A stretch of DNA of 63,815 bases, counting the filler. It is 6 parts of 6 records of this genome, joined end to end, with 100 filler letters (N's around TTAATTAATTAA, not from the genome) between each part and the next. Parts side by side here need not be neighbours in the genome. Positions count along the whole stretch, not along the records: positions 26,278 to 37,762 come from SRR20825010_1034; 5 more parts are not named here. One strand, 5' to 3'. The notes under the pieces are model-generated. The model saw only the letters and a program-made list of their open reading frames with translations. It made no database searches and was not told where the DNA came from. Positions 8,435 through 48,424 of this stretch are shown one piece after another. Each line of letters starts with the position of its first letter. The stretch's first letter is position 1. Position numbers and translations under genes: made by a program.

Positions 8435-8514
8435 CGGTCCCTCGCTGGTCAGGCTACACTTTGGCTGCCCGAAGCTGGCTTGGGGCAGCCAGTGTCCGGC
8501 TGTTCTGCACCCCG

Positions 8515-27113: not shown

Positions 27114-27189
27114 GAGGGCGGCTCAACAAGGTTGAACCTCACTCATACCGGAAGGCGGAAGATTGGCAAGTGGCACCCTTTCTGCCCGG

Positions 27190-27369
27190 TCAGTCTAGCT
27201 CCACCATTTCAAAATCGGCTTTTGAACTGCCACAATCAGGGCAGGCCCAATCATCGGGAATGTCTTCCCAATAAGTGCCCGCCTCAACCCCCTCGTCAGG
27301 CAGACCTTCGGCCTCGTCATAGACGAAACCGCAGATCTGGCATTGCCATGTCTTGAACGGACGGGCCAT
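27190..27369 (-). CDS. Rubredoxin (59 aa; not in the ORF track)
   Basis: Hand translation gives [59 protein letters not shown], with two CxxCG motifs. RBS GGGAGGT. Confidence 0.96.
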
Positions 27370-27396
27370 CCGGCACCTCCCTGCCTTTAGAAGCTC

Positions 27397-28665
27397 TTAT
27401 TTCATCTTATAACGGATCGGCACGGTCTTGGGACCACAGACGAAATTGGACAGCGAATTTTTAGGCTCGCCCGCCAATTCAACAAATTCCACACGACGGA
27501 AGATTTCTTCCCAGAAGAGACGCATTTCGAGCTTGGCCAGATGCTGACCGATGCAAACATGCGCGCCATAGCCGAAAGCAAGTTGCTTGTTGGGCTTACG
27601 GTCGATCTGGAATTCGAACGGCTTGTCGAACACATCCTCGTCGCGATTGCCGGACGGATAGCAAAGCATCATCCAGTCACCCTTGGCGATCTTCTGACCC
27701 GACACTTCCGCGTCAGCGGTCGCCGAACGCATGAAATGCTTGACCGGCGTGGCCCAGCGAATTGTCTCGTCAATAAAGGTCGGAATGAGCGAAGGGTCTT
27801 CCTTCAAGCGCTTGAAATCGCCGGGACGCTCCGCCACCGCCCAGAGACCGGACGATGTTGTGTTGGACGTTGTGTCATGACCGGCGGTTGCGGCGATGAT
27901 GTAATAAGACATGGCCGCAAAGTGATCGAGTGGCTGGCCGTTGATCTGGCCGTTAGCAATGACGGAAGACAGATCTTCGCGCGGATTGGCGCGGCGGTCT
28001 TCGGTCAATGCATTGAAATATTCAATGAAGTCACCAATCGTCGCCTGCATGGCGGCAAGACCTTCTTCAAAGGTTGCCTCCTTGCCGGAGCGATTGAGGT
28101 CCGGATCATTGCTGCCAAAGAGTTCCTGCGTCAGCTTCAACATGCGCGGCTCGTCGGCTTCCGGCACGCCCAGTGTTTCCATGATGACATGCAGCGGGAA
28201 ATAGAGCGCCACATCCTTGGCGAAGTCGCACTCCCCGCCCATATCGGCCATACGGTCGACAAAGACTTTGGCAATGTCCTTGATGCGGCCTTCGAGCTTC
28301 TTCAGGTTTTGCGGCAGAAACCAAGCCTGCGTCAGACGGCGGTAGGCCATGTGGTCGGGATTGTCCATCTGCACAAGCGAGCGCACCAGATGGGGAGAGC
28401 CCCCCATCATCTCGCGCACTTTCTTGTCCACTTCGATAGTGACCATGGTCGTCGGCTCATCACCATTATGAAAAAGCTCGTTCTGCTTTTCGACTTCCAG
28501 AATGTCGGCATGTTTGGTGATAGCCCAGAACGGCGCGATACCTTCTGGCTCGGCACGCGCCAGCGGCATTTCCTTGCGCAAAAACTTGAACGCTTCATCC
28601 ACCGGCTTTTCAGCCGCATAGGCTTTGGGGTCCACAATCGTATTGGCAATGTCCTGCGGAATCAT
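27397..28665 (-). CDS. Cytochrome P450 (CYP108-like)
   Basis: I-helix ATAGHDTT, ETIRWATPV and heme motif FGYGAHVCIG. Start MIPQDIA behind AGGGAGAGG. Confidence 0.93.
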   Translation of the reverse strand: MIPQDIANTIVDPKAYAAEKPVDEAFKFLRKEMPLARAEPEGIAPFWAITKHADILEVEKQNELFHNGDEPTTMVTIEVDKKVREMMGGSPHLVRSLVQMDNPDHMAYRRLTQAWFLPQNLKKLEGRIKDIAKVFVDRMADMGGECDFAKDVALYFPLHVIMETLGVPEADEPRMLKLTQELFGSNDPDLNRSGKEATFEEGLAAMQATIGDFIEYFNALTEDRRANPREDLSSVIANGQINGQPLDHFAAMSYYIIAATAGHDTTSNTTSSGLWAVAERPGDFKRLKEDPSLIPTFIDETIRWATPVKHFMRSATADAEVSGQKIAKGDWMMLCYPSGNRDEDVFDKPFEFQIDRKPNKQLAFGYGAHVCIGQHLAKLEMRLFWEEIFRRVEFVELAGEPKNSLSNFVCGPKTVPIRYKMK

Positions 28666-28768
28666 ATCGGGCCTCTCCCTGAGGTTTGCGCAGGTCATTT
28701 ATCTGCCGCGCTTGATTATCTCTGACCGTCATGTTGCTATACGTCCAACAACTAAGTAAACAGGAAAA

Positions 28769-29416
28769 ATGGCCAACCCAGTCGAAATCGACACCCTCTC
28801 CACCGATGCGCCCCATGTGCGGCGCACGCAGGCCGAGCGCCGTGCAGAATCCGACCGCAATCTGCTGCTGGCCGCCGCCGAACTTATTGCCGAGGAAGGT
28901 TTCAACGCCGCCACATTCGAAAAAGTAGGGGCCCGCGCAGGCTATAGCCGCGGATTAGCCAGCCAGCGGTTCGGCTCCAAGGACGGGCTGATCGAAGCAC
29001 TGATCGATTACCTGCACGAACGCTCGGAAGAACTGGTTTTTGCCGAAGGGCTGGACGGCGTGAAAGGTCTCGACGCGATCCTTGTCGCGGTGGACATCTA
29101 TATGCGCAACTTCGAGGCCGAGCAGGCGATCCGCTCCTATTTCGTGGCCATGGCCGGTGCCGTGGGCACGCTGTCGCCGCAACGCGCAGCCTTTGCCGCC
29201 TCGCATATGAAAGCCAAAGCACGCTTCGCCTTCCATATCCGCGAGGGGCAGGACAATGGCTCGATCTCGAGAGACATAGACGACGAAGCCGCCGCCCTGA
29301 TGATCGGCAGCCTCATTCTAGGCGTCAGCACACAATGGCTGATCGACCCTTCCACCGACCTTGCTCGTGTGCGCAAGACAACGCTGGATACATTGCGGCG
29401 GAGTCTGGCGGCTTAG
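28769..29416 (+). CDS. TetR/AcrR family transcriptional regulator, divergent from the P450
   Basis: RRTQAERRAES...AAAELIAEEGFNAATFEKVGARAGYSRGLASQRFGSKDGL. Confidence 0.92.
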   Translation: MANPVEIDTLSTDAPHVRRTQAERRAESDRNLLLAAAELIAEEGFNAATFEKVGARAGYSRGLASQRFGSKDGLIEALIDYLHERSEELVFAEGLDGVKGLDAILVAVDIYMRNFEAEQAIRSYFVAMAGAVGTLSPQRAAFAASHMKAKARFAFHIREGQDNGSISRDIDDEAAALMIGSLILGVSTQWLIDPSTDLARVRKTTLDTLRRSLAA

Positions 29417-29455
29417 GTCCCTTCATCTTTTCTTGGTAGAGCCAAGATGAGAAAA

Positions 29456-29962
29456 TCAACGGCGCAGACGATAAAGCGCGCACCAGTCGCCTTTGATCTC
29501 GCCCTCATATTCAAACTGAAAACCAAGCTTCTCCATCACGTGCCGCGAAGCACGATGCTCAGCGACTGCGAAAGCGATGATGTTAGTGAGTGCCAATGGC
29601 CCGAAAGCAATATCGACCAGTGATCTGGACACTTCGGTGGCAAGCCCCTGCCCCCAAAACACGCGATGGAACGTGTAACCAATCTCCACCTCGTCGACGC
29701 CCTTAATGGCGATGTGACGCAGAGCACAACGCCCTGCGAACATGCCATCTTTGGTCCGCAAAGCCCATGTACCGAAGCCATAGGTTTGCCAATGAGCAAT
29801 ATTGTCGTTGATATAGGCCCGCGTTGCCGTCTCGTCGCGCACACCACCTAGATATTTCGACACATCGGTGTCTTTGTGGAGGAGACACAGCTCATCGAGA
29901 TGGCTGAAATCGAGCGGGGTAGCAACGAGGCGCTCGGTGGTAAAGGTGGCGGGCATCAACAT
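29456..29962 (-). CDS. GNAT (RimJ/RimL-like) acetyltransferase
   Basis: TTERL, EIGYTFHRVFWGQGLATE and ASRHVMEKLGF. Confidence 0.88.
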   Translation of the reverse strand: MLMPATFTTERLVATPLDFSHLDELCLLHKDTDVSKYLGGVRDETATRAYINDNIAHWQTYGFGTWALRTKDGMFAGRCALRHIAIKGVDEVEIGYTFHRVFWGQGLATEVSRSLVDIAFGPLALTNIIAFAVAEHRASRHVMEKLGFQFEYEGEIKGDWCALYRLRR

Positions 29963-30088
29963 GAGTTCACACAATCAGAGGAATCACTTTGTCTCGGCTT
30001 GGGCCTGAGCATGCAACGCCTATACTGGTTGAAATAGATCTAGATGGCACGATCAAGTCGGGCCAAGACGAAATTGAGGACACAAAAA

Positions 30089-30460
30089 ATGAAACTCTGG
30101 CTTTCTATCGCCGCCTTTTCAGGCTTTCTGGCTGTCGCCGTCGGGGCCTTCGGAGCGCATGGACTGGCCAACCGCGCGACGCCTGAAGAGCTAAACGCCT
30201 TTGAAATCGGCGCGCGCTATCACATGTATCATGCGCTGGCGCTGTTTGCGGTGGCCTGGCTGGCGACACAGGGCGAAAGCACTTTGGTAACGACCGCCGG
30301 TTGGGCCTTTGTGCTGGGCACCGTATTTTTCTCAGGGTCACTCTACGTCCTTGGCGCCACAGGCAGCCGCTCGCTCGTGCTGGTCACCCCATTGGGCGGC
30401 GTCACCTTTATGATCGGCTGGATCTGCCTTTTTGCCCGCGCACTGAAAATGCCTGCCTAA
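30089..30460 (+). CDS. DUF423 membrane protein
   Basis: AVAVGAFGAHGL, YHMYHALAL, FFSGSLY and VTPLGG. Confidence 0.92.
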   Translation: MKLWLSIAAFSGFLAVAVGAFGAHGLANRATPEELNAFEIGARYHMYHALALFAVAWLATQGESTLVTTAGWAFVLGTVFFSGSLYVLGATGSRSLVLVTPLGGVTFMIGWICLFARALKMPA

Positions 30461-30551
30461 ACCCTTGTTTTTCGCTGGACCGAAGTCTATTTTTAGACAA
30501 CGGTATGGCGGAATTGGCCCTTTTGGGCGGCGCGAGAGGGAGAAACGACCG

Positions 30552-32054
30552 ATGGTCGAAAAGGTACTTGTTCTGGGTAGCGGCATTGCCGGACTTTCCA
30601 CAGCACTGGCATTGCATGGCAGCAACCGCGAACTTGTCATCATCGACAGAGACGCACCACCGCCGGACACATCAGCCGACGAGGCCTTTGAAGTCTGGGA
30701 GCGCCGCGGTGTCGGCCATGTGCGCCACAGTCATGCGTTTCTGGCCCGACTGCACAATATCATCCGCGACCAGCACCCTGCCCTGCTGAAAGAATTGCTG
30801 GATGCAGGCTGCCGTGAAATTCTGTTTACAGATCATCTCGCACCGGAAAAGCTGGTGGATTATGTCGCCCATCCCGGCGACCGCGACCTGACCATTCTGA
30901 CCAGCCGCCGCACAACACTCGAATTCATCATGCGCCGCTATGTGGCGGGCCTTGCCGGTGTGCGCTTTCTCAACAGCACACTGGTGCGCAGCCTCATCAC
31001 CGAGCCACAGGGTGTCGCTCGGAAAGTGCGCGGCGTCACGATCGAAAACGAGAGCGGCACACAGGAATTGCTCGGCGATATTATTGTCGATGCCGGTGGC
31101 AAGAACAGTCAGGCGCTGGAATGGCTACGCGAAGGCGGACTGCAGATCGACGAAACATCTGCGCCGTCCGGCATTGTCTATTTCACACGCCATTACAAAT
31201 TGCATGACGGCGTGAGCGAACCCGCACGCACCAAGACACCGGCAGCAGGCGATCTGGGCTATATAAAATATGGTGTGTTTCCCGCCGATAACGGCTGCTT
31301 CTCCATCACGCTTGCGGTGCCGGAAGTCGAAATGGAAATCCGTCGCGCCATCGTGAAACCCGAAATATTCGACGGCATCTGCCTCGAAATTCCCGGCATG
31401 GCCAAATGGGTCGCACCCGAAACATCGGAACCGAAAAGCAAAGTCTTCGGCATGGGCGAATTGCTGGCCCGCTGGCGTCACATGGTGAAGGACGGCGCCC
31501 CGCTGGCCCTGAACTTCTTCCCCATCGGCGACACGGTGATCCGCACCAACCCGCTTTATGGTCGCGGCTGCTCCTTTGCTGCCGTGCAAGCCCATATTCT
31601 GCGGGATGTTCTGAATGAGACAAAAGACCCTGTCGCCCGCGCCCTCGCCTTCCACGCCCGTGTGGAAAAAGACCTGCGCCCCTATTACGAAGACATGCTG
31701 AAACAGGATGCTTCGGCCATCAGACGCGCGGCCAATGCGCTGACGCCCGGCTACAAGCCCAGCCTCAAAGGCCGGTTACTCCAAAGCTTCATTGACGATG
31801 CAATGATGACGGCTATTCGCGGCGAGACGCGGCTGGCGCGCGAATTCATGCGCGCCTTCCACATGATCGACGAGCCAGGCCTCTGGCTGAAAAGCCCGCG
31901 CAACATTTTCACGGTTCTGCGCTACTGGCTGAAAAGCAAGAAGAGCAAAGCGGACCTCTACCCGCCCAAGCTTGGACCGGATCGCGAGGATATGCTGAAA
32001 ACACTCGGCCTCTCGGCACAGGCGGATGTAGATCGCCTGAAAGCAGCGGCATAA
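30552..32054 (+). CDS. FAD-dependent oxidoreductase/monooxygenase (LasC-like epoxidase family resemblance)
   Basis: VLGSGIAGL, RRGVGHVRHSH, IVDAGG and IGDTVIRTNPLYGRGCS. Confidence 0.8.
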   Translation: MVEKVLVLGSGIAGLSTALALHGSNRELVIIDRDAPPPDTSADEAFEVWERRGVGHVRHSHAFLARLHNIIRDQHPALLKELLDAGCREILFTDHLAPEKLVDYVAHPGDRDLTILTSRRTTLEFIMRRYVAGLAGVRFLNSTLVRSLITEPQGVARKVRGVTIENESGTQELLGDIIVDAGGKNSQALEWLREGGLQIDETSAPSGIVYFTRHYKLHDGVSEPARTKTPAAGDLGYIKYGVFPADNGCFSITLAVPEVEMEIRRAIVKPEIFDGICLEIPGMAKWVAPETSEPKSKVFGMGELLARWRHMVKDGAPLALNFFPIGDTVIRTNPLYGRGCSFAAVQAHILRDVLNETKDPVARALAFHARVEKDLRPYYEDMLKQDASAIRRAANALTPGYKPSLKGRLLQSFIDDAMMTAIRGETRLAREFMRAFHMIDEPGLWLKSPRNIFTVLRYWLKSKKSKADLYPPKLGPDREDMLKTLGLSAQADVDRLKAAA

Positions 32055-32126
32055 AATTTCACCATCCCCTTTCGGGGAAGGCAGATAAAATCAAAACAAG
32101 AAAACTCTTTAGGGGAACGCCGACAC

Positions 32127-33101
32127 ATGACCAATTTTCCAAAGCCGCATTTTGTGCAGACAAATGGCATCAAGATGGCCGTCTATGAACAGGGCGACAA
32201 AAACGCCATTCCGGTTGTCATGTGTCATGGCTTTCCCGAAATCGGCTATTCGTGGCGTCACCAGTTGCCGGCGCTTGCCGATGCGGGCTTTCGCGCAATT
32301 GCCCCCGACCAGCGCGGCTATGGCCGCACCGGCGGCCCCAAGGGCAAAGACGCTATTCCGCTTTATGACATGCAGCACCTGACCGACGATCTGGTCGGCA
32401 TGCTCGACGCGATGGAAATCGAGAAGGCAATCTTTGTCGGTCACGATTGGGGCGGCATGGTCTCCTGGCAGATGCCGCTGCGCCATCCCGATCGCGTTGC
32501 AGGCTGCATTGGTGTCAACACACCCTTCCTGCCCCGCTCGCCGATGGACCCCATCGCCGCCATGCGCATGATGTATGGCGAGGACATGTATATTGTCTAT
32601 TTCCAGCAATATGGTGTGGCCGAAGGCATGTTCGACGCCGACGTGCCGCGCGCCCTGCGCTTCTGGTATCGCAAGACAGAAACAACACTGAAGGATTTCG
32701 ATGCCCTGCCCGCCGAGGAAAAAAACCTCTCCTTCCTCAAGGGCTTTGCCGTTGACGAAAACCTCTGGCCCGGCAAGCCGCTGCTGACACCGGAAGAACT
32801 GGCCTATTACGTCGAATGCTTCGAGGAATCGGGCTTTGAAGGCGGCATCGGCTGGTATCGCAATTTCACACGCAACTGGGAAATGACCGAAGGTCAGGAA
32901 CAGAAGGTCAATGTGCCCTGCCTGATGATCTCGGCAGCAAACGACTTTGTGCTGCGCCCCGAAATGGCGGACGGCATGGAGCAATATTGCCCCGACCTTG
33001 AAAAGCACGTGATCCCCGATTGCGGTCACTGGACACAATCGGAAAAGCCAGCCGAACTCAATGCGCTGATGACAGACTGGCTGAAACGCCGTTTCGGCTG
33101 A
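32127..33101 (+). CDS. Alpha/beta-fold epoxide hydrolase
   Basis: CHGFPE, YSWRHQ, APDQRGYG, GHDWGG, WYRN and CGHWTQSEKP. Confidence 0.92.
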   Translation: MTNFPKPHFVQTNGIKMAVYEQGDKNAIPVVMCHGFPEIGYSWRHQLPALADAGFRAIAPDQRGYGRTGGPKGKDAIPLYDMQHLTDDLVGMLDAMEIEKAIFVGHDWGGMVSWQMPLRHPDRVAGCIGVNTPFLPRSPMDPIAAMRMMYGEDMYIVYFQQYGVAEGMFDADVPRALRFWYRKTETTLKDFDALPAEEKNLSFLKGFAVDENLWPGKPLLTPEELAYYVECFEESGFEGGIGWYRNFTRNWEMTEGQEQKVNVPCLMISAANDFVLRPEMADGMEQYCPDLEKHVIPDCGHWTQSEKPAELNALMTDWLKRRFG

Positions 33102-33128
33102 AATTTCGCTCTGCATGATTATGCGACT

Positions 33129-33169
33129 ACACTCCCCGCAAAAATAGTTGCGGGGAGTGTTTTCGTTTT
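33129..33169 (+). terminator. Terminator-like hairpin overlapping the GH1 RBS
   Basis: 13-bp stem ACACTCCCCGCAA/TTGCGGGGAGTGT followed by TTTCGTTTT. Confidence 0.7.
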
Positions 33170-34390
33170 ATGGCCGATATCAAAAAATTTCTCTGGGGTG
33201 CAGCAATCTCTGCGCATCAAAGCGAAGGCAACAATATCAATTCGGATATCTGGCTAGCCGAAAATGTAACGCCGACAATTTTCCGTGAACGCTCGGGCGA
33301 CGCCTGCGACAGCTATCACCTCTATGGGCAGGACATTGCCATCGGGGCCGATATCGGCCTCAACGCCTACCGCTTCGGCATTGAATGGTCACGCATCGAA
33401 CCTGAGCAAGGTCACTTCGCCAGCGCCGAACTCGACCATTATGCCCGTGTGCTGGACACTTGCCACGAAAGCGGCATAGCGCCCATGGTAACGCTTAGTC
33501 ACTGGTCAATGCCGAGATGGTTCTCAGCACTTGGCGGCTTTGAGACAGACGAAAGCGTGGACCACTTTGCGCGCTTCACCGAAAAAGTTACCGAACGCCT
33601 TGGCCCGCTCATGGCGGCGGCCACAACATTCAACGAAGCAAATATTCTGCGCGTCATGCGTAATTCGCCGGGCTTCAAAGGCATGGGCGGCAGTCGCATG
33701 ACGGGCATGATGGAAGCCTGCGCCAAGGCTTGCGGCTCGGAGCGTTTTTCCAGCGTGCTGTTCTCGCCGCTTGAAAATATCGAGAGCAATATGATCAAGG
33801 CACATCGCCGCGCCTTCGACATTATGAAAGCCGGTCCCGGCGACTATCCTGTCGGCATCACGCTCGCGCTGTCGGCTGTGCAAGGCCTGGGCGAGAACAA
33901 TCAGGCCGACAAGGTGTCAGCAGACATTTACGGACCGTGGCTCAACACAATGAGCCATGCCGATTTTGTTGGCGTGCAATGCTACACGCGCCTGCTGATC
34001 GGCCCCGATGGCCCGATCCACCCGCCCGAAGACGCCGAACGCACCACAATGGGATATGAATTCTATCCCGAAGCCATCGGCATCACCCTGCGCGATGCCG
34101 CAGCCCGCACCGGCAAACCCGTCTATGTGACCGAAAACGGCGTCGCCACCGATGATGACACGCGCCGCGTGGCCTATATCGACATTGCCACCCGCGAAGT
34201 GCTGAAAGCGCGGGCGGAAGGCGTAGACGTACGAGGCTATTTCCATTGGTCCCTACTCGACAATTTCGAGTGGTTTCTGGGTTACGGCCCCCGTTTCGGG
34301 CTGGTAGAGGTCGATCGGGAGACGTTCCACCGGCGCCCGAAGCCCAGCGCCTATCATCTGGGTGCGATTGCCAAAGCGGATTTGGGCTAG
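33170..34390 (+). CDS. Glycoside hydrolase family 1 (beta-glucosidase-like)
   Basis: FLWGAAISAHQSEG, TFNEAN (acid/base), VYVTENG (nucleophile) and WSLLDNFEW. Confidence 0.94.
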   Translation: MADIKKFLWGAAISAHQSEGNNINSDIWLAENVTPTIFRERSGDACDSYHLYGQDIAIGADIGLNAYRFGIEWSRIEPEQGHFASAELDHYARVLDTCHESGIAPMVTLSHWSMPRWFSALGGFETDESVDHFARFTEKVTERLGPLMAAATTFNEANILRVMRNSPGFKGMGGSRMTGMMEACAKACGSERFSSVLFSPLENIESNMIKAHRRAFDIMKAGPGDYPVGITLALSAVQGLGENNQADKVSADIYGPWLNTMSHADFVGVQCYTRLLIGPDGPIHPPEDAERTTMGYEFYPEAIGITLRDAAARTGKPVYVTENGVATDDDTRRVAYIDIATREVLKARAEGVDVRGYFHWSLLDNFEWFLGYGPRFGLVEVDRETFHRRPKPSAYHLGAIAKADLG

Positions 34391-34573
34391 AATTCAGCAA
34401 ATCTGAACAGCATCAAACGCTTACAAGCCTGTCAGCCGCCTTGTTGCGCGGGCACTCTTTGGTTATGATCCGCCGCCGGTTTGAACGCGGCGCAGCATGG
34501 GCTAAACCTTCAGCTCAAACCTCCCCCGTGGCCGCCACCGGCGACACCTGACATAAGGCAAGGAAAGACACGC

Positions 34574-35950
34574 ATGTCGCAAGTGCTTGAGCGTGAAGAT
34601 TTGGGCGCGGATGCGGCTGTGGCAGACACTGCCCCCGCACCTGTTCTGCGCGCGCCGCTCAGCGGCTCGCGGCTGGAAGCAGCTAAGGGCGACCGGCCAT
34701 TGCGCATTCTGCTGCCCAGCTATCGCTCGAACCCGACCACAGGCGGCCAGGGCGTCTATATGCGCCATATCGCCAAGGCGCTGGCTGATATGGGCCACGA
34801 GATCGACGTGATTTCCGGCCCGCCCTATCCCGTTCTCGATCCGCGTGTGAAGCTCATCAAGCTGCCCTCGCTCGACCTCTATGCCAACCCGCACCCCATC
34901 AAGGCACTGCGGCCCTGGATGTTTGCCACGCCCATCGACCTCTTTGAATGGTGGAGCCACAATACGGGCGGCTTCTCCGAGCCTTACACTTTCTGCGAGC
35001 GCATGGCGCGCTATGTGCGCGGCACGGTGGATGATTATGACATCTGCCACGACAACCAGACGCTTGGCTGGGGCCTGCTGAAACTGCGCGATATGGGCCT
35101 GCCCATTGTCGGCACGATCCATCACCCGATCACGATGGACCGCCGCATCGACATCCAGCACGCCAAGACCCTGAGCCTCAAACTGCTCAAGCGCCGCTGG
35201 TACACATTCCTCGACATGCAGATCAAAGTGGCCCGCCAGCTTGATCCGCTGATTGTCGTCTCCGAAAGCACACGCCGCGATGTAGTGCGCGAGTTTGGTG
35301 TGAAAGCCGAGCGCACCCGCCTTGTGCTGCACGGCATCGACCACATCCAGTTCCGCCCCATGCCGCATATCAAGCGTCGCGACGACCTCATTGTCGCCTG
35401 CGCCAGTGCCGACGTGCCGCTGAAAGGCCTGATCTATCTGATCCGCGCCTATGCCGAATTGCTCAAGACCTATCCCGATCTGAAACTCAAAGTCATAGGA
35501 CGTCTGCGCGAAGGCAACACAACCGACGAACTGCGCGCCTATGGCATCATGGACAAGGTGGAGTTTGTCGGCGGCATCACGGATGAGCAGATCACCGAGA
35601 TTTATGCCGAAGCGACCATCGCGGTCTCGCCCTCAGTCTATGAAGGTTTCGGCTTTCCCTGCGGTGAAGCCATGTCCTGCGGCACGCCCGTCATTGCCAC
35701 CACAGGCGGCTCGCTGCCCGAAGTTGTCGGCGATGCGGGGCTTGTCGTGCCCCACTCCAACCCGCCCGCACTCGCCAAGGCGATTGCCACTTTGCTCGAC
35801 GACAAGGAAATGCGCGACCGCCTCGGCCATGCAGGCCGCGAGCGCATTCTCTCGCAATTCAAATGGGAACGCGCGGCGCGCGAAGTCACAGAAATTTACA
35901 GGCAGACAATTCTAGATGCAGACCATCGACTTCAACATTCTCGGGCTTAA
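34574..35950 (+). CDS. GT4 glycosyltransferase resembling mycobacterial MMP mannosyltransferase ManT
   Basis: SYRSNPTTGGQGVY, LPSLDLY, HDNQTLG, HHPITMD, ASADVPLKG and PSVYEGFGFPCGEAMSCGTP. Confidence 0.85.
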   Translation: MSQVLEREDLGADAAVADTAPAPVLRAPLSGSRLEAAKGDRPLRILLPSYRSNPTTGGQGVYMRHIAKALADMGHEIDVISGPPYPVLDPRVKLIKLPSLDLYANPHPIKALRPWMFATPIDLFEWWSHNTGGFSEPYTFCERMARYVRGTVDDYDICHDNQTLGWGLLKLRDMGLPIVGTIHHPITMDRRIDIQHAKTLSLKLLKRRWYTFLDMQIKVARQLDPLIVVSESTRRDVVREFGVKAERTRLVLHGIDHIQFRPMPHIKRRDDLIVACASADVPLKGLIYLIRAYAELLKTYPDLKLKVIGRLREGNTTDELRAYGIMDKVEFVGGITDEQITEIYAEATIAVSPSVYEGFGFPCGEAMSCGTPVIATTGGSLPEVVGDAGLVVPHSNPPALAKAIATLLDDKEMRDRLGHAGRERILSQFKWERAAREVTEIYRQTILDADHRLQHSRA

Positions 35951-36632
35951 AGACGGCCAGCGCACGCTCGACCTCGGCTGCGGCCGTGGTCGTCACGTCC
36001 ATGCCATGTATTACGCGGCTCAGTGCCATGTGGTAGGCCTCGACCTCGGCTTCGAGGATGTGAAAAACACGCGCGCCGGTTTCGAGCAATGCCCCGACAT
36101 GGACCCGCAGACAAAGCGGTCATTCTCGCTAACCGTCGGCAATGCGCTGGAACTGCCCTTTCCCGATGCGACATTCGACAAGATCATCTGCTCGGAAGTG
36201 ATGGAACACATTCCCGACTACAAACAGGCGATTGCCGAATGCGAACGCATTCTGAAGCCCGGCGGCACGCTGGCCATTTCTGTGCCCCGATTCTTCCCCG
36301 AATGGGTCTGCTGGAAGCTGTCGGATGATTATCACAATGAGCCGGGCGGCCATGTGCGCATTTTCCGCGAAAGCCAGTTGAAGGATTCCGTCGAGGAAAA
36401 AGGCCTGACCTTCTTCCATCGCCATTGGGCACACGGGCTGCACTCGCCCTATTGGTGGCTCAAATGCGCATTCGGCGTGAAGCGCGAGGATGTGGGCATC
36501 GTCAATGCCTATAAGAAGTTTCTCGAATGGGACATTCTGGAAGGTCCGTGGCTGACACGCACACTGGAAAAAATCGCCGGACCTCTGATGGGTAAAAGTG
36601 TTGTCTTCTATTTCTTCAAGGGGACCGCATGA
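35916..36632 (+). CDS. Class I SAM-dependent methyltransferase resembling MMP 1-O-methyltransferase MeT1
   Basis: MQTIDF, LDLGCGRGRH, SEVMEHIPD, PEWVCWKLSDDYHNEPGGHVRI, AHGLHSPYWWLKCA and GKSVVFYF. Confidence 0.85.
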   Translation: MQTIDFNILGLKDGQRTLDLGCGRGRHVHAMYYAAQCHVVGLDLGFEDVKNTRAGFEQCPDMDPQTKRSFSLTVGNALELPFPDATFDKIICSEVMEHIPDYKQAIAECERILKPGGTLAISVPRFFPEWVCWKLSDDYHNEPGGHVRIFRESQLKDSVEEKGLTFFHRHWAHGLHSPYWWLKCAFGVKREDVGIVNAYKKFLEWDILEGPWLTRTLEKIAGPLMGKSVVFYFFKGTA

Positions 36633-37711
36633 CCCACCTCACCTATGGCGACAAGATCCCTGAAGACCATTTCGACGGTGCCAAAGATCGCATCCTCGAA
36701 TTGCAGCGCACCAACGGCGCGATCCCCTGGTATGATGGCGGCGTCATCGACCCGTGGAACCACACCGAAGCGGCGATGGGTCTGACCGTCATCGGCGAGA
36801 CAGAACATGCGCGCCGCGCCTTCCGCTATTTGCAGGATACGCAGCTTGATGATGGTTCATGGTGGGGCCAGCTCGGCTCGGCTGTCCCCTTTGACGATGA
36901 AGCCCATTACAGCGGTGGCGAAGAAGGTGCGGGCAAACCGATCCGTGACACGAATTTCGCCGCCTATATCGCCACAGGCGCATGGCATCACTATCTCATC
37001 ACGCGCGACCGCAAATGGCTGGCCGATATCTGGCCGAATGTGGAAGCCGCGATCAAATGGGTGGTGGACCATCAAAGCCCGCATGGCGATATTCGCTGGG
37101 CGGCGAACGATCCGCACACACCGGAAAATGACGCGCTAATCACCGGCTCGTCCTCGATCTATAAAAGCCTCGAATGCGCGATCCATATCGCACAGGAGCT
37201 CGGCCTCTCCTCACATGACTGGCACGGCGCCCGCTTCCGCCTAGGCGAAGCCTTGCGCGAGAAGCCGCACCGCTTTGACCGCACATGGGAATCCAAAGCG
37301 CGTTATTCGATGGACTGGTACTACCCTGTGCTGGCAGGCGTTATCACGGGCGAAGCTGCCCGCCGCCGTATCGCCTCCAAATGGGATATTTTCGTTGCCG
37401 ATGGCAAAGGCTGCCGCTGTGTGCTGGACCAGCCCTGGGTCACGATTGCCGAAAGCGCCGAACTCACCATGGCATTGCTCGTGGCCGGTCAGCGCCGCGA
37501 AGCCGAACAAATGCTTGCATGGCAGCATCAATGGCGCGACGACAAGGGCGCTTACTGGATGGGTTTCCAGTTTGAAGAAAACGTCGCATGGCCGTCGGAA
37601 AAACCCGCATGGACAGCCGCTGCCGTTATTCTTGCAACCGATGCCGTGACGGGCGCCACACCGGCTTCACGGTTATTTGCAGAGCGTACGCTGGCAGAAG
37701 CAGCGGAATAA
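36629..37711 (+). CDS. (alpha/alpha)-barrel protein (usually annotated prenyltransferase-like) resembling MMP hydrolase MmpH
   Basis: IPWYDGGVIDPWNHTEAAM, DTNFAAYIATGAWHH, ALITGSSSI, RYSMDWYYPVL, PWVTIAESAEL and EKPAWTAAAVILA. ATGA overlap with the methyltransferase. Confidence 0.8.
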   Translation: MTHLTYGDKIPEDHFDGAKDRILELQRTNGAIPWYDGGVIDPWNHTEAAMGLTVIGETEHARRAFRYLQDTQLDDGSWWGQLGSAVPFDDEAHYSGGEEGAGKPIRDTNFAAYIATGAWHHYLITRDRKWLADIWPNVEAAIKWVVDHQSPHGDIRWAANDPHTPENDALITGSSSIYKSLECAIHIAQELGLSSHDWHGARFRLGEALREKPHRFDRTWESKARYSMDWYYPVLAGVITGEAARRRIASKWDIFVADGKGCRCVLDQPWVTIAESAELTMALLVAGQRREAEQMLAWQHQWRDDKGAYWMGFQFEENVAWPSEKPAWTAAAVILATDAVTGATPASRLFAERTLAEAAE

Positions 37712-37734
37712 GCGGCCACTTCATATTCTTTGTC

Positions 37735-37762
37735 GTCATGGCCGGGCTTGACCCGGCCATCT
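37735..37762. repeat. Alphaproteobacterial REP-like palindrome at the contig break
   Basis: GTCATGGCCGGG-cttga-CCCGGCCATC. Confidence 0.75.
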
Positions 37763-38501: not shown

Positions 38502-41500
38502 ATGAAAAAGCACTTTACCCTGCTTACGTTTTTCATGCTGTTAACAGTTTTTGCCCTACAGGCACAAGACAAAGTGATTAGCGGAAAAATAGTTGACACG
38601 TCAGGTGAAACAATGCCTGGCGTTACCATAATCCAGAAGGGCACTGCCAATGGCACTGCCTCTGATATTGATGGGAAATATTCATTGTCAGTTCCTGATG
38701 GAGCTACACTTGTATTTTCATTTATCGGATATTCCTCCATTGAAAAGACTGTCGGTTCAGCTAGCGTTATAGATATAACAATGCAGATAGATGAATCAGA
38801 GCTTGATGAAGTCGTAGTAATAGGATACGGAAGCCAAAAGAAAAGTGATTTGACTGGAGCTGTTGGTTCTGCGTCAGGTGAAAAACTTCAAGAGCGACCA
38901 ACATCGTCTTTACCTCAAGCGCTTTCCGGTAAGATAGCCGGTGCAAACGTGTCTCAAAACTCAGGGAAACCAGGAGGGAAAACGCAGATCAGGATTAGAG
39001 GTAATACCTCTGTGAGTCTTGACAACAGTCCTCTTTATGTAGTAGATGGGGTGATCCTTGTTTCTACTTCATTGAGTGATAATTCCAGCCCCATTGATTA
39101 CATCAATTCGAATGACATTCAATCCGTAGAAGTTCTGAAAGATGCTTCTGCCACAGCAATTTATGGCTCAAGAGGTGCCAATGGTGTAGTATTGGTAACC
39201 ACCAAAAGAGGTAGTACCTCTGGAGTGAAAATAGGATACGATTCTTATTATGGTGTAGGGAAAATCGCCAAAAAAGTGGGCGTGCTTAATTCCGAGGAAT
39301 TTTTAATGATTGAAGATGTAGCCTATCAAAATGCCGAGAAATACGATGCTGTAGGATGGGCCAACGGGAAATATACAGATCCAGCGTTAAAAAGAACTAA
39401 TCCCTTACTATTTGATGCTAATGGGAATCCTCTATATGATACAGATTGGCAGGATGAAGTTACTCAATCCGCTTTTTCCCAAAATCATCAATTGTCTTTC
39501 ACTGGCGGAAGCGAGGCGGGTAGTTTTGGTGCCTTTTTAGGATATACAGGTGAAGAGGGGATTATGAAAGAATCCTCACTCGATCGTTATTCTGCAAGAT
39601 TTGTTTTTGATACCAGTTACAAAAAGTGGTTTAAAGTAGGAGGGAGTCTCGGCTATAATCAGCAGAATGAACGACTTATTCATGATTCTTGGGTAGGTAG
39701 AAATATGATCGAAGCTATTCCAATCATCCCGGTGAAGTATGATGATGGTTCATGGGCCAGTAATTTAGATTATCCTGGCATGGAAGGCGGACCAAATCCA
39801 GTGCAGGTGGGGCAAGAATATCTCAAATACTTAAAAACCAATACAGTTTTAGGTAATGTATTTGTCAATTTCACCTTAGCTGAGGGATTGGAAATGAGAT
39901 CCTCTGTAGGTGTGAATTACATTCACCAAAAGACACAGGAGTATGCAGGTAGATCTCTCAATTTCATTGGTACGCCTACGAATGGATATGCACAAATTTT
40001 CACCAATGAGTTCTTTTCTTGGCAATTTGAAAATTACTTGACTTATAATAAAACCTTCAACGACATCCATTCCTTTACTGGATTACTTGGGATTTCCTGG
40101 CAGCAGACAGATAGGTCTAATTATAATGTTCGCGTAAACAATTTCTCAGACGATTTTTTCAGTTTCAATAATTTGGCAGCTGGATCTGTGCCAGTGGCTC
40201 CGACCTCAAGTGCATCAGTAGAGGGCATTAATTCCTATTTCGGTAGGATTAATTACGGTCTGAAGGACAAATATTTAATGACAGTAACAGGGAGGATTGA
40301 TGGTTCTTCAAAATTCGGTGAAAACAACAGGTATGCATTTTTTCCTTCAGCTGCTTTAGCGTGGAGAGTTTCTGAAGAGGGTTTTCTTTCTGGCTCATCT
40401 CTAATATCAAACCTTAAGGTTAGGTCTAGTTATGGAGAAACAGGTAACTCAGGTATTCCAGCTTACGGTGCTTTAGCTGGATTAAGCAGTGCGTATTCTT
40501 ACGTGTACGGGGGCTCAGTAGTAAAAGGAATTGGCAAAGGTTCTCTGGCTAATCCTGAGCTTAAATGGGAAAGAACAAAGCAGATTGATGCTGGGTTTGA
40601 GCTTGGCTTTTTTAATCAAAGAATCTCCCTTGAGGCCGACGTTTATCTCAAAGAAACAACCGATATGTTGTTAAATGCTCCTGTGCCCCTGAGTAGTGGG
40701 TATGCCACTGTATTTAGAAATATTGGTAGCATGGAAAATAAGGGCATAGAGCTCTCACTTAATACTGTGAATATTGAGAATGATGATTTCTCTTGGGAAA
40801 CGACGTTTAATATCTCCATGAATAAAAATGAGGTAACTGCGCTATCAGGAGGTAGTGATATCTTTTCAGGGAATACAATTATCCGTGAAGGTGAACCGGT
40901 AGGATCATTTTGGGGATGGCAACATCTTGGTACTTGGGGCTCTGATGAAGCAGATGAGGCAGCCGTTTATAATTGGCTACCAGGCGACATTAAATTGAGA
41001 GATGTCAACGAGGATGGATCTATTAATGATGCTGATAAAGTCATCATCGGAAATGGAATGCCTAAAGGATATGGAAGTTTTATCAACTCTATAAACTACA
41101 AGAATTTCGAATTTTCATTGGATTTACAATTTACCTACGGTAATGATGTGATGTATCTGACAACACGTCCTCAGGAAAACCGCCAGGGAATTGCTAATAG
41201 CCTGAGTACCGTGCTGGATGCCTGGACACTGGATAATCAGGATACGGAAATTGCCCAGTGGAGACCTGTTTCGGCTGGATATGATAACAGGGATACAGAT
41301 CACATGATCCAAGATGGTTCATTCATCAGAGGAAGAAATATGCTGTTGGCTTATAATTTCTCATCTGATCTACTGGATAAAATACATCTACAAAGATTAC
41401 GTGTGTATACCTCTTTGCAGAATTTCTTTTTGATAACGAAATATCAAGGATATGACCCAGAGGCTCAGACTTCTAACACGCCGTTTGGACAGGGTGAAGT

Positions 41501-41561
41501 GAATTTTCAGCAATATCCAAGACCAAAAGTAATTATGGTCGGATTGAATGTTTCATTCTAA
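38502..41561 (+). CDS. susC: SusC/RagA TonB-dependent outer-membrane transporter
   Basis: LDEVVVIGYG, EVLKDASATAIYGSRGANGVVLVTTKRG, DGSSKFG, LKWERT and C-terminal YPRPKVIMVGLNVSF. Confidence 0.97.
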   Translation: MKKHFTLLTFFMLLTVFALQAQDKVISGKIVDTSGETMPGVTIIQKGTANGTASDIDGKYSLSVPDGATLVFSFIGYSSIEKTVGSASVIDITMQIDESELDEVVVIGYGSQKKSDLTGAVGSASGEKLQERPTSSLPQALSGKIAGANVSQNSGKPGGKTQIRIRGNTSVSLDNSPLYVVDGVILVSTSLSDNSSPIDYINSNDIQSVEVLKDASATAIYGSRGANGVVLVTTKRGSTSGVKIGYDSYYGVGKIAKKVGVLNSEEFLMIEDVAYQNAEKYDAVGWANGKYTDPALKRTNPLLFDANGNPLYDTDWQDEVTQSAFSQNHQLSFTGGSEAGSFGAFLGYTGEEGIMKESSLDRYSARFVFDTSYKKWFKVGGSLGYNQQNERLIHDSWVGRNMIEAIPIIPVKYDDGSWASNLDYPGMEGGPNPVQVGQEYLKYLKTNTVLGNVFVNFTLAEGLEMRSSVGVNYIHQKTQEYAGRSLNFIGTPTNGYAQIFTNEFFSWQFENYLTYNKTFNDIHSFTGLLGISWQQTDRSNYNVRVNNFSDDFFSFNNLAAGSVPVAPTSSASVEGINSYFGRINYGLKDKYLMTVTGRIDGSSKFGENNRYAFFPSAALAWRVSEEGFLSGSSLISNLKVRSSYGETGNSGIPAYGALAGLSSAYSYVYGGSVVKGIGKGSLANPELKWERTKQIDAGFELGFFNQRISLEADVYLKETTDMLLNAPVPLSSGYATVFRNIGSMENKGIELSLNTVNIENDDFSWETTFNISMNKNEVTALSGGSDIFSGNTIIREGEPVGSFWGWQHLGTWGSDEADEAAVYNWLPGDIKLRDVNEDGSINDADKVIIGNGMPKGYGSFINSINYKNFEFSLDLQFTYGNDVMYLTTRPQENRQGIANSLSTVLDAWTLDNQDTEIAQWRPVSAGYDNRDTDHMIQDGSFIRGRNMLLAYNFSSDLLDKIHLQRLRVYTSLQNFFLITKYQGYDPEAQTSNTPFGQGEVNFQQYPRPKVIMVGLNVSF

Positions 41562-41578
41562 TTTAAAATAAGACACAA

Positions 41579-43093
41579 ATGAAGACTCATATAAAAAATA
41601 AGCTACAAGCCATATTTACAGGAACCCTGTTGTTATTTAGCGCAAGTTGTTCTGATTTTCTGGGAGAAACAGATCCTTCAAATATCACAGCAGATAGCTA
41701 TTACCAGACCGCAGAACATGCTCAAGCCGCAATTACTGCCGTCTATTCTAATTTGAAGGATATCAGAGGTGGTTCGTATGGAGGAGGACCTTGGTTGATG
41801 GCTGAGTTTGCCACTGGGTTGGCTGATTCAGATTTAGGACAGGCTGACAATAGTAATATCATTAGGAATTTGAATAATAACTCCGACAACGCATATGGTT
41901 TAGCTCACTGGAGATCAAATTATGAAGGTATCGCTAATGCAAACTTAGCGATAGCTAAAATTCCAGGAATCCAGATGAATGAAGAGCTCAAGAAAAAATA
42001 TTTAGGAGAAGCTAAGTTTCTTAGAGCTCATTATTATTATCAATTGGTAAGACTGTTTGGAAAGGTTCCTTTAATCTTAGATCCTATAGATTTAGCATCT
42101 AAAGATCTTTATCCTACACAAGCATCAGAAGAGGAGGTTTATACACAGATTGTAAAGGATTTGATTGAGGCAGAGGGTGCGGGCTTACCAGCCAAGGATC
42201 CTGCCGGTAAAGTTACCTCGGGAGCTGTGAAAACACTTTTATCGAGCGTTTATCTGACCATGGCTGGATATCCTTTGCAAAAAGGCGCTACTCATTATAA
42301 ACTGGCTGCAGACAAAGCCAAGGAGGTTATTGACAATGCTGTAACATTTGGTTATAGTTTGTTTCCTAGCTATGATGATCTACATAATCCAGCAAAGAAA
42401 AATATAGGTGAGAATATATTTATGGTGCAATACAAAACCCTTACAGCACCATCGAATTGGCAGCCTCTCATAATACCATATAACATGAATATCTCTGCAT
42501 ATTCTGACCAGACTGGAGCTATTTATGCTAATCTTGACTTCATTAAATCCTATGAAACAGGTGATAAAAGAATAGAAGAAAAAGCGTTCTATTTTACAGA
42601 GTATACCTTGAAAACTGACAGATCCAAAAAAGTTAATTTGGGAGGATATTTTCTCTATAAGCATTTTGATATTCAGGCAAACCTTTTGTCTGCAAGTGCC
42701 GATCTCAACTGGTCGCTATATCGCTATGCAGAGCTGTTATTAATATATTCTGAGGCTTCAAATGAAGTTGCTGGCCCGACGGCTTTGGGCTATGAGGGGT
42801 TGAATGCGATTAGAAGCCGAGCTGGGTTGACAGCTCACACAGGACTTTCTCAAAATGAATTTAGAGAAGCTGTATGGAGAGAGAAGTGGCATGAGCTCAG
42901 TTACGAAGCTGTAACTTGGTTTGATATGGTTAGGGTTAGAAAAGGGTTCAATGTAAGCAATGGTACCTTTGATGATTTTGTAGGACATCAATTTGCCTAC
43001 GGCCCTACCTTGACTGCCAGGGAATTATTATTCCCAATCCCAACAAGCGAAGTAAGAAACAACACTAATCTCATCCAGAATCCTGGTTATTAA
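41579..43093 (+). CDS. susD: SusD/RagB lipoprotein
   Basis: Lipobox SASC. GEAKFLRAHYY, YRYAELLL, ELSYEAVTWFDMVR and LFPIP...QNPGY. Confidence 0.96.
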   Translation: MKTHIKNKLQAIFTGTLLLFSASCSDFLGETDPSNITADSYYQTAEHAQAAITAVYSNLKDIRGGSYGGGPWLMAEFATGLADSDLGQADNSNIIRNLNNNSDNAYGLAHWRSNYEGIANANLAIAKIPGIQMNEELKKKYLGEAKFLRAHYYYQLVRLFGKVPLILDPIDLASKDLYPTQASEEEVYTQIVKDLIEAEGAGLPAKDPAGKVTSGAVKTLLSSVYLTMAGYPLQKGATHYKLAADKAKEVIDNAVTFGYSLFPSYDDLHNPAKKNIGENIFMVQYKTLTAPSNWQPLIIPYNMNISAYSDQTGAIYANLDFIKSYETGDKRIEEKAFYFTEYTLKTDRSKKVNLGGYFLYKHFDIQANLLSASADLNWSLYRYAELLLIYSEASNEVAGPTALGYEGLNAIRSRAGLTAHTGLSQNEFREAVWREKWHELSYEAVTWFDMVRVRKGFNVSNGTFDDFVGHQFAYGPTLTARELLFPIPTSEVRNNTNLIQNPGY

Positions 43094-43179
43094 AAATCAT
43101 GTTCAATTTGCATCAACATAAGATTCTAATTCTTTATGTGAGAATATATAGTACAATATAGAATGGGTTTTATATTTTA

Positions 43180-43229
43180 AAGGGGAGTTGGATGCTGCAA
43201 ATGCAGTAGTACTCAACTTCCTTTTTTTT
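43180..43229 (+). terminator. Terminator/attenuating hairpin after susD
   Basis: AGGGGAGTTGGA..TGCTGCA/TGCAGTA..TCAACTTCC followed by T8. Confidence 0.65.
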
Positions 43230-43306
43230 ATTGGAAAGCAATGTAAAAGAGCAATTTTTATGAAATGAATCAACTTAGCAGAAAGTATTAATTTGTATCT
43301 AAAGTA

Positions 43307-44911
43307 ATGAAACATTCGTGGAATATAATTCTTCCCTTAGCAGCTGTGTTGGGTATACTATCCTCCAAACCAGCGAATTCTCAGATAAATTCAAAACCAA
43401 ATATCATCATCATTTACACTGATGATCAAGGGTATGGGGATGTAGGAGCATTAAATCCTGATGCGAAATTCCTTACTCCAAATATGGATAAAATAGCACA
43501 TGAGGGAGTAATATTCACTGATGGGCATAGCAGTGATGCAGTCTGTACCCCATCAAGATACTCCCTTCTCACCGGAAGGTATAGCTGGCGAACATCTCTA
43601 AAAAAAGGAGTGCTAGATGCAGATGGACCAAGTCTCATCGAGGAGGGAAGAATGACCATAGCTTCCTTGCTTCAGGAAAATGGCTATAACACCGCCATGA
43701 TAGGTAAGTGGCATTTGCAGATGGAATTTGCAGGGACATTGGGTAAAGACAGGGACTGGTCTGTTCCCTTTGAGGAAGGGCCAATAGCTCATGGTTTCGA
43801 TTATTTCTATGGAATACCTGCCTCGATGAACTATGGTATTTTAACTTACTTAGAAAATGATCGAGTGCTGGATCCTCCAATTTTGTGGACGAAGAAAAAG
43901 GATGTCACCGATCCAAGGTCCTTTCAGAATCATGTCAATCCAAATGATTACAGAATGACTCCTCCTTATATGGCTGAGGCTGGCGAAGGAGGCGGATGGG
44001 TAGAGGTTGCGCCATCTTTTAATGATGAGCTTGTGTTGGAAATCCTCACTTCTCATGCTGTCGATTACATAGATAAAGCGGCGATAGAGTCAAAGAATGG
44101 GAAACCGTTTTTTCTATACTTGCCGTTGACTAGTCCACATTTGCCACATAGCACACATCCAGATTTCCGAGGACTAAGTGAATGTGGTAACTACGGGGAT
44201 TTTATGCAGGAAACGGATTTTAGGGTGGGGCAAATACTAGATGCGCTGGATGCCAATGATATTGCCAACAATACGCTGGTGATTTTTTCCTCCGACAATG
44301 GAGCTGAAACCAATTATACCTACCACCAAAAAGTATATAATCACTACAGTAATCTAACCTTCAAAGGAGGGAAACGCGATATCTATGAAGGTGGTCATCG
44401 TGTTCCTTATCTGATGCGTTGGCCGGACAAAATCAAGCCAGGAAGCCAGGTTGATATTGCAGTTAGCCAGACAGATTACCTTGCTACTGTTGCAGCTATT
44501 GTAGGAGTGACGCTTCCAGATAATGCGGGGGAAGACAGTTACGATCTTTTACCCCTGATGCTGGGGAAAAGCACTGATACGGATGTCAGGGGTGCTGTCA
44601 TTCATCATTCCGTGACAGGTCACTTTGCTATTCGTGAGGGTAAATGGAAATTGAATATGCTTCGGGGTTCTGGTGGATCATTGCAGCCAGTGTTTGTGGA
44701 AGCCAAAGAAGGAGAGCCAATTTATGAACTCTATAACATGGAAGTTGATCCAGAGGAATCGAATAATTTATTTGACCAGTATCCTGAGTTAGTTAAACAA
44801 CTCACTGCCAAGATCACTGAAATCATTTCCAACGGACGTTCTACTCCGGGGGCTCCTCAGGATTTTGTTAAGTCGGACTGGCCTCAATTGACGTGGATGA
44901 AGGTGGAGTGA
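43307..44911 (+). CDS. S1 (Cys-type) sulfatase
   Basis: PNIIIIYTDDQGYGD, CTPSRYSLLTGR, GKWHL, FSSDNG and KRDIYEGGHRVP. Confidence 0.95.
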   Translation: MKHSWNIILPLAAVLGILSSKPANSQINSKPNIIIIYTDDQGYGDVGALNPDAKFLTPNMDKIAHEGVIFTDGHSSDAVCTPSRYSLLTGRYSWRTSLKKGVLDADGPSLIEEGRMTIASLLQENGYNTAMIGKWHLQMEFAGTLGKDRDWSVPFEEGPIAHGFDYFYGIPASMNYGILTYLENDRVLDPPILWTKKKDVTDPRSFQNHVNPNDYRMTPPYMAEAGEGGGWVEVAPSFNDELVLEILTSHAVDYIDKAAIESKNGKPFFLYLPLTSPHLPHSTHPDFRGLSECGNYGDFMQETDFRVGQILDALDANDIANNTLVIFSSDNGAETNYTYHQKVYNHYSNLTFKGGKRDIYEGGHRVPYLMRWPDKIKPGSQVDIAVSQTDYLATVAAIVGVTLPDNAGEDSYDLLPLMLGKSTDTDVRGAVIHHSVTGHFAIREGKWKLNMLRGSGGSLQPVFVEAKEGEPIYELYNMEVDPEESNNLFDQYPELVKQLTAKITEIISNGRSTPGAPQDFVKSDWPQLTWMKVE

Positions 44912-44945
44912 ATTTGAAGTAGTTAAATGAGTAAAAAACAAACAC

Positions 44946-46625: not shown

Positions 46626-46750
46626 TTCTAAGTACTTTAAGACGTAAGGAAAATTAAAAACTAATTTGACTAAGAATGACTAGAAATGGAAATAGGGATT
46701 CGGGAATGTTAATGAGATCATTTGTCTCTGAAATACACTCAGGTTTTCTC

Positions 46751-48295: not shown

Positions 48296-48424
48296 GGAGG
48301 ATGGTTCTAGGGTAGATTTTTTGTTTTCTGACATTTATTTTATCAGTACAGAGCAGGACAATTTGGAGTGTAAACTTGGTTTCATTTGGTTAGACACAAA
48401 TCATCTTACCTAAGCTTTGTAAAA

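Follow-up and report, generated by a model that had tools for sequence, protein, structure and literature searches.

Which polysaccharide do three overlapping genes at positions 34574-37711 of a 63,815-nucleotide stretch of joined contigs (the window) serve, and what could such a polymer do for its host? In mycobacteria, the cluster for 3-O-methylmannose polysaccharide (MMP) has the order meT1-mmpH-pmeT3-manT (M. hassiacum; M. smegmatis MSMEG_6481-6484; PDB 7QSG, 7QSJ and 6G7D; PMC9883506). ManT elongates oligomannosides using GDP-mannose, MmpH cuts MMP to primers, MeT1 caps free ends, and losing mmpH abolishes MMP (PMC9883506). A sequence-only reading of the window had named its genes manT, meT1 and mmpH and had supposed that an MMP-like polymer may be made outside Actinobacteria. 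The supposition is strengthened here by the four-gene block found in relatives and by its tracking with beta-oxidation genes, and the name meT1 proved wrong. The genes are manT, pmeT3 and mmpH and belong to a cluster of four in the mycobacterial order. With a probability of about 0.6, this cluster makes and recycles a cytoplasmic 3-O-methylmannose-type polysaccharide that would bind long-chain acyl-CoA.

The gene block and its fourth member

The window (1-63815) consists of six contigs joined by N linkers (at 26178, 37763, 49146, 53601 and 59776). The contigs come from clearly different organisms (GC content 41-62%), so the neighbourhood across the linkers carries no meaning. The block lies on the contig 26278-37762 (GC 57.6%) as three open reading frames (ORFs; Table 1), with AAGGA 9 nt ahead of the manT ATG. 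The overlaps that had been described, 35 bp between manT and pmeT3 and ATGA between pmeT3 and mmpH, agree with the ORF coordinates, and every protein motif quoted earlier is present in the translations. GC content at third codon positions (GC3) resembles that of neighbouring genes, and the ratio of nonsynonymous to synonymous substitution rates (dN/dS) against five relatives ranges over 0.05-0.16 for the three genes (manT 0.05-0.10, pmeT3 0.07-0.10, mmpH 0.05-0.16). All three overlapping ORFs are genuine genes kept under purifying selection.

A scan of 11 of the 64 parts of the genome collection returned 598 relatives, the best 80 of which were inspected. Among these 80, the nearest named loci for the third protein are Parvibaculum and Rhodobiaceae records (79-87%). 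The flanking genes of the contig are syntenic with Parvibaculum, and the window sequence falls within the Parvibaculaceae clade of a concatenated tree of 35 loci. Judged from these sequence comparisons, the host belongs to the Alphaproteobacteria and is Parvibaculaceae-like, which refines the alphaproteobacterial host named earlier. The nearest genome, G001, lacks both this contig and mmpH, and goes with another contig of the window.

The first protein, a glycosyltransferase of family 4 (GT4), matches PDB 7QSG at E 9.8e-102, at least 75 orders of magnitude ahead of the second of 72 matches (E 2e-26). This entry is titled generically and was read as ManT because the residue numbers of PMC9883506 (G15, H142, K240, L291, D293, E313, E321) fit it at one offset. 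The window protein retains G15, H142, K240, D293, E313 and E321, and all of these apart from D293 are unchanged in 102 of 102 aligned homologues (rows below 75% coverage were excluded from this and the other residue alignments). Its earlier assignment as ManT was thus borne out.

The motifs GGHVRI and AHGLHSPYWWLKCA of the second protein are present as quoted, and its family is pMeT3. The protein is 44% identical (E 1e-68) to the gene in the pMeT3 position of a Mycobacterium locus (L058:5184-5939), and 44-45% identical to the gene between manT and mmpH across two Mycobacterium loci. Against Mycobacterium MeT1 it reaches E 0.11; the MeT1 structure 6G7D is absent from its 30 PDB matches, and PF13578 (Methyltransf_24) gives no match, on which grounds MeT1 was rejected for the middle gene. 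The true MeT1 in L058 is the convergent gene after mmpH, which matches 6G7D at E 4e-105. Since the mid-position gene of Mycobacterium is the one that matches and its MeT1 is the convergent gene past mmpH, the window holds manT-pmeT3-mmpH. The predicted structure of the window pMeT3 (built on 33 sequences; predicted local distance difference test score 92) has RebM and AtmM as its top Foldseek matches, with a template modelling (TM) score of about 0.65 and 18-20% identity. We take RebM to be a sugar O-methyltransferase, and the substrates of both enzymes are presumably indolocarbazole glycosides. AtmM (6UV6) is a sugar O-methyltransferase by its PDB title. This distant, fold-level likeness is a weak hint that pMeT3 may methylate a sugar hydroxyl.

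The third protein matches MmpH (PDB 7QSJ) at E 5.1e-83 over residues 20-351, again the best match by at least 75 orders of magnitude, and its naming as MmpH held. It retains D47, W49, N101, F102, T163, M215, Y219, E262, E265 and W315, the exception among catalytic residues being D50. Across 115 homologues D47, W49, M215, Y219, E262, E265 and W315 are unchanged, and N101 is His in six. The label prenyltransferase or squalene cyclase was rejected for this barrel protein: cyclase structures match at E 1e-4 over 29 residues vs E 5e-83 for MmpH. Automatic annotation widely calls MmpH homologues prenyltransferase, phenyltransferase or hypothetical, and neither Pfam nor NCBIfam has a model specific to them. 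Their CAZy family is presumably GH178; GH178 belongs to clan GH-L.

Where is meT1? It was not found in the window, and the contig stops 51 nt past the mmpH stop codon, inside a palindromic repeat (Table 1) that matches many places in G003 and G002. Contigs of all four sequencing runs examined end at 37760-37762, and the repeat likely caused an assembly break before meT1. Of 19 Parvibaculaceae loci, 18 have a convergent meT1 downstream of mmpH (within 400 bp in 11 of these), and so do all 12 genome stretches taken for a check, 27 of 31 other alphaproteobacterial loci and 7 of 7 SAR86 loci. Two runs, X1 and X2, contain the window contig (99%) plus a contig of similar depth (9.76 vs 9.77/8.96; 8.32 vs 6.7-7.3) that matches meT1 of L010 and the next gene at about 83-84%; they are not independent, since they come from one sample, perhaps the source of the window contig. 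The comparison suggests that meT1 likely lies just beyond the contig end. The junction between mmpH and meT1 is an insertion hot spot in Parvibaculaceae, with palindromic repeats, a transposase-like ORF (L001:1377-2480) and unrelated inserts of 1-2 kb (L003, L010, L087, L088).

Distribution, descent and acyl-CoA dehydrogenases

How widespread is the block? The 80 inspected relatives include Parvibaculum, Tepidicaulis, Rhodobiaceae, Rhodospirillales, SAR86, Syntrophus, Smithella, Streptomyces and Mycobacterium, and manT and pmeT3 stand alongside mmpH in 105 of the 106 loci with upstream room. Counted with a single query each at E 1e-30, where a miss means not found with that query and the centre genomes G007 and G375 count as positive by design, mmpH occurs in 69 of 73 Parvibaculales genomes and meT1 in 70 of 73. 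Matches to mmpH were found in 23 of 301 Alphaproteobacteria, 19 of 151 Desulfobacterota and 7 of 300 genomes of the class of G001, which is inferred to be Gammaproteobacteria because one match shares neighbours with SAR86 loci. The block is near-core in Parvibaculales and scattered in other Alphaproteobacteria, the G001 class and Desulfobacterota. It is not special to one alphaproteobacterium and occurs in several phyla.

The concatenated tree groups Actinobacteria and Desulfobacterota each as a clade and as mutual sisters, with most alphaproteobacterial sequences in one further clade. Approximately unbiased (AU) tests (LG+G4, quick, unrooted), with groups named after a preliminary tree of 71 loci had been seen, rejected a single clade of Parvibaculaceae and Actinobacteria (p 2e-5) and one of all Alphaproteobacteria and Actinobacteria (p 0.01). 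A collection of 72,556 plasmid records gave one match, on an 11.9 Mb actinobacterial replicon. Judging by the trees, a recent transfer from mycobacteria or other Actinobacteria is excluded.

Presence of the block has been linked here to genes of fatty-acid breakdown. Acyl-CoA dehydrogenase matches (PF00441) were counted per Mb, up to 41 per genome, as matches and not copy numbers. All 23 alphaproteobacterial carriers were compared with 56 of the 278 non-carriers, taken first by handle number, leaving out G093 (0.5 Mb) and one unpublished genome; the medians are 9.7 vs 1.7 per Mb (p 3e-10, a value that, like those below, overstates the case because kin genomes are not independent). At least five matches per Mb are present in 22 of 23 carriers vs 11 of 56 non-carriers. 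Without Parvibaculales the carriers still have 9.4 vs 1.7, and among size-matched genomes (2.5-5.5 Mb) the values are 9.7 vs 3.1. The difference recurs in Desulfobacterota (19 carriers vs 61 of 132 non-carriers; 6.6 vs 1.4, p 1e-8) and in the G001 class, from which G376 and one unpublished genome were left out (7 carriers vs 61 of 293 non-carriers; 7.1 vs 0.67, p 5e-5). In each of the three groups, the carriers' matches per Mb exceed those of non-carriers 5-10 times. The single control family, GT4 (PF00534), is flat in the same alphaproteobacterial set (2.5 vs 2.5 per Mb, p 0.86).

The physiology of Parvibaculum lavamentivorans has been described, and is used here as a genus-level comparison, the block not being confirmed by name in that strain. 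P. lavamentivorans has 40 predicted acyl-CoA dehydrogenases and grows on C8-C16 alkanes and alkanoates (PMC3368416). It used none of the sugars tested (PMC3368416), which argues for an endogenous glycan substrate of the block. The host of the block likely lives on alkyl chains as well.

Proposed function and its alternatives

By analogy with the mycobacterial enzymes, ManT would add alpha-(1->4)-mannose from GDP-mannose onto a short primer, and pMeT3 would methylate O3 of the newly added units, a step unproven even for mycobacteria. MmpH would cleave mature chains to primers, as in M. hassiacum, and MeT1, presumably encoded past the contig break, would cap the fresh reducing ends. The polymer, expected as alpha-(1->4) 3-O-methylmannose chains of 11-14 units, would then bind long-chain acyl-CoA and buffer beta-oxidation intermediates. 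A supply of GDP-mannose is indicated by GDP-mannose pyrophosphorylase (TIGR01479), above its cut-off in five of five genomes of Parvibaculaceae relatives, which as a common family is weak evidence. That the block yields an MMP-like polymer is probable on these comparisons. That the polymer acts as an acyl-CoA or fatty-acid buffer on the degradative side, as the genome co-occurrence suggests, is a serious possibility with slightly less than an even chance. Still more tentatively, MMP could be an old cross-phylum acyl-CoA chaperone of fatty-acid and alkane users (Parvibaculales, PS1, SAR86, Syntrophales, Actinobacteria), whose main role would be to buffer detergent-like acyl-CoA in beta-oxidation. 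Its lineage variants would include a D50N hydrolase in Alphaproteobacteria and an acetylated, radical S-adenosylmethionine (SAM)-modified polymer in Desulfobacterota.

The likeness to the mycobacterial system extends to four shared gene families in the same order, with meT1 convergent downstream in the window's relatives, to the catalytic residues of ManT and MmpH, and to 44-46% identity (52-56% for Parvibaculaceae MeT1). In contrast to the mycobacterial cluster, the window block has a predicted polymer, meT1 off the contig and Asn at the Asp50 position of MmpH, and belongs to a Gram-negative host on a separate, old branch of the family. Mycobacteria provide a context of type I fatty acid synthase and mycolate synthesis, whereas the Gram-negative block goes with an expansion of fatty-acid-breakdown genes. 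Streptomyces griseus makes a related polymer, acetylated MMP (AMMP), with a 53%-identical ManT in a non-mycobacterial host (PMC9883506), therefore homologues near such a distance can keep their chemistry. Unlike the Parvibaculaceae block, which has no adjoining acetyltransferase, the Desulfobacterota block has one; the S. griseus system is actinobacterial and its polymer acetylated. The mycobacterial 6-O-methylglucose lipopolysaccharide (MGLP) is likewise a cytoplasmic polymethylated polysaccharide proposed to bind acyl-CoA, but is made by other enzymes from another sugar.

Several points weigh against the proposed function, beside the kinship among the genomes compared. The polymer and the enzyme activities are predictions from sequence. 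Identities to the two Mycobacterium loci are 44% for one protein, 44-45% for another and 46% for the remaining one (M. hassiacum proteins were compared through HMMER alignments only), and the working cut-off for the cluster in PMC9883506 was over 50% identity at 70% coverage, which the window proteins miss by identity. No contig of the examined runs spans the repeat to meT1, so that its linkage to the block is deduced. Acyl-CoA binding rests on in vitro work, and fatty acids were normal in polymer-poor mutants of mycobacteria (PMC2674218). Genomes rich in acyl-CoA dehydrogenases, yet without mmpH, include G109, G001 and G398, and the correlation may mark lifestyle instead of function. To these are added the Asp50 variant, the variability of D293 and the lipopolysaccharide (LPS) neighbours of some loci, each taken up below.

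Could an MMP-like polymer serve adaptation of the membrane or to cold stress, or some other role with hydrophobic ligands, with the beta-oxidation link reflecting shared lifestyle or ancestry? The sole in vivo phenotype of the mycobacterial mmpH mutant was an 18% longer generation time at 15 C (PMC9883506), the profiles of fatty acids and mycolates were normal in mutants deficient in the polymer (PMC2674218), many carriers are marine by record title and many lipid-rich genomes are without the block. This explanation is nevertheless unlikely: the PF00441 association recurs in three separately sampled groups, persists without Parvibaculales and with size matching, and has a flat GT4 control, and Syntrophus and Smithella records from anaerobic habitats are among the carriers.

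A chemically different glycan, in sugar, linkage, length or decoration, such as a glucan with methyl groups or a mannan that is acetylated or carries extra methyl groups, is less likely again. Identity of 44-46% leaves room for it, as do two variable residues. ManT D293, a proposed guanine contact (PMC9883506), is retained by the window protein and by all 17 Parvibaculaceae sequences and varies in other Gram-negative groups. MmpH of the window has Asn at Asp50 (codons for DPWN, 36749-36760), as do all 19 Parvibaculaceae, 28 of the 30 other Alphaproteobacteria and three of the six G001-class loci; all 59 SAR86, Desulfobacterota and actinobacterial sequences have Asp. The Asp50->Ala variant of M. 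hassiacum MmpH lost most activity, and the choice of catalytic acid, D47 or D50, was left undecided (PMC9883506). The pattern points to Asp47 as the probable acid, because Asp50 is naturally Asn in most alphaproteobacterial orthologues and Asp47 is unchanged in 115 of 115; the natural D50N could alternatively mean altered MmpH activity. A different decoration is further suggested by Desulfobacterota loci: 16 of 19 contain a hexapeptide O-acetyltransferase and 15 of 19 a B12-binding radical-SAM gene, in most cases placed between mmpH and meT1, and both are candidate enzymes for acetylating or otherwise modifying the polymer; such loci include L030, L031, L034, L037 (e.g. 7051-9393), L042 and L045. 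In L126, galU (8933-9826) lies directly upstream of manT. Opposed to this, the remaining mapped catalytic and pocket residues are retained in window ManT and MmpH, D293 included, the four enzymes travel as a set, and the window protein matches glucan-forming GT4 structures far less well than ManT (GlgM, 6TVP, E 1.5e-17).

A role in assembling or trimming a surface glycan, for example an O-antigen of 3-O-methylmannan or a decoration of LPS, is very improbable. An alphaproteobacterial precedent exists in the O-polysaccharide of Oligotropha carboxidovorans, an alpha-(1->2) 3-O-methylmannose polymer (cited in PMC9883506), and in some SAR86 and related loci lipid A, 3-deoxy-D-manno-octulosonic acid (Kdo) and heptose genes flank the block (L021, 680-3954 and 7716-11062; L127; L128), with an MsbA-like ATP-binding cassette gene between manT and pmeT3 in L127 (7758-9800). 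However, no LPS genes adjoin the Parvibaculaceae block, and none of 124 neighbour proteins from the locus neighbourhoods (22 plus 102 of 173 cluster representatives) belongs to a flippase (Wzx), polymerase (Wzy), Wzm/Wzt or ligase (WaaL) family, which makes the role unlikely. The 1-O-methyl cap set by MeT1 would presumably block attachment at the reducing end. Hydropathy profiles of the three proteins gave no clear signal or transmembrane stretch (maximum 1.76, in ManT), and the enzymes look cytoplasmic.

A recent or decaying actinobacterial acquisition, or a binning artefact, without function, is suggested by the mixed contigs of the window and is already largely refuted by the dN/dS and GC3 values, the synteny with Parvibaculum, the presence of mmpH throughout the order, the AU test and the plasmid search.

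What would an acyl-CoA-buffering MMP in such hosts mean? The MMP system itself is already known; the hypothesis of a catabolic acyl-CoA buffer is new and testable. The survey in PMC9883506 covers 162 actinobacterial genomes, and the word proteobacteria is absent from its main text; the peer-review reply mentions MmpH homologues of 40-51% in some Proteobacteria, which were left aside. For bacteria outside Actinobacteria, the literature listings and abstract openings searched, mostly without subscription papers, yielded no report of the complete cluster, of the polymer or of a link to beta-oxidation. Because unrelated Gram-negative bacteria with many genes for fatty-acid breakdown share the block, an MMP-type polymer probably occurs much more broadly than has been assumed. 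The role of polymethylated polysaccharides has remained open, since they bind acyl-CoA in vitro, yet mutants showed little (PMC2674218, PMC9883506). A block in alkane and fatty-acid degraders that tracks beta-oxidation in three groups offers a specific hypothesis together with organisms suited to testing it, probably without overlap from MGLP (its genes were not searched for in Parvibaculaceae). The natural D50N variant bears on the catalytic acid left open by the structure paper, and the 3-O-methylation step may be easier to study with a proteobacterial pMeT3. Thousands of homologues labelled prenyltransferase or hypothetical could be renamed, and abundant marine and anaerobic-digester bacteria would, if the proposal is true, contain an unrecognised intracellular glycan.

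Feature coordinates and minor observations

Table 1. Features of the contig that carries the block, in window coordinates.
Feature	Position	Strand	Evidence
manT orthologue, predicted GT4 alpha-(1->4)-mannosyltransferase, 458 aa	34574..35950	+	PDB 7QSG match, residues, dN/dS
pmeT3 orthologue, putative 3-O-methyltransferase, class I SAM, 238 aa	35916..36632	+	Mycobacterium positional orthologue, model
mmpH orthologue, predicted (alpha/alpha)6-barrel endomannosidase, 360 aa, Asn at Asp50 position	36629..37711	+	PDB 7QSJ match
Short palindromic multicopy repeat at contig end	37727..37761	.	Copies in G003 and G002
Glycoside hydrolase family 1 (GH1) glycosidase upstream of manT	33170..34390	+	PF00232

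A promoter scan gave one site vs 2.3 expected, and a repeat scan of the contig 26278-37762 gave only chance-like pairs. The next contig carries a Bacteroidetes-like SusC/SusD-sulfatase locus (38502-49145). Two proteins 82% identical to the window pMeT3 (P0019 and P0026) bear Aerococcus source names and are probably mislabelled or contaminant, and G002, which has two mmpH matches, may be a mixed bin. The GH1 gene was rejected as a member of the block: it is absent from 19 of 19 Parvibaculaceae loci, most of which keep the flanking genes, and the insertion is seen in the window's lineage only. A gene of the Gcn5-related N-acetyltransferase (GNAT) family at 29456-29974 is likewise variable among relatives.

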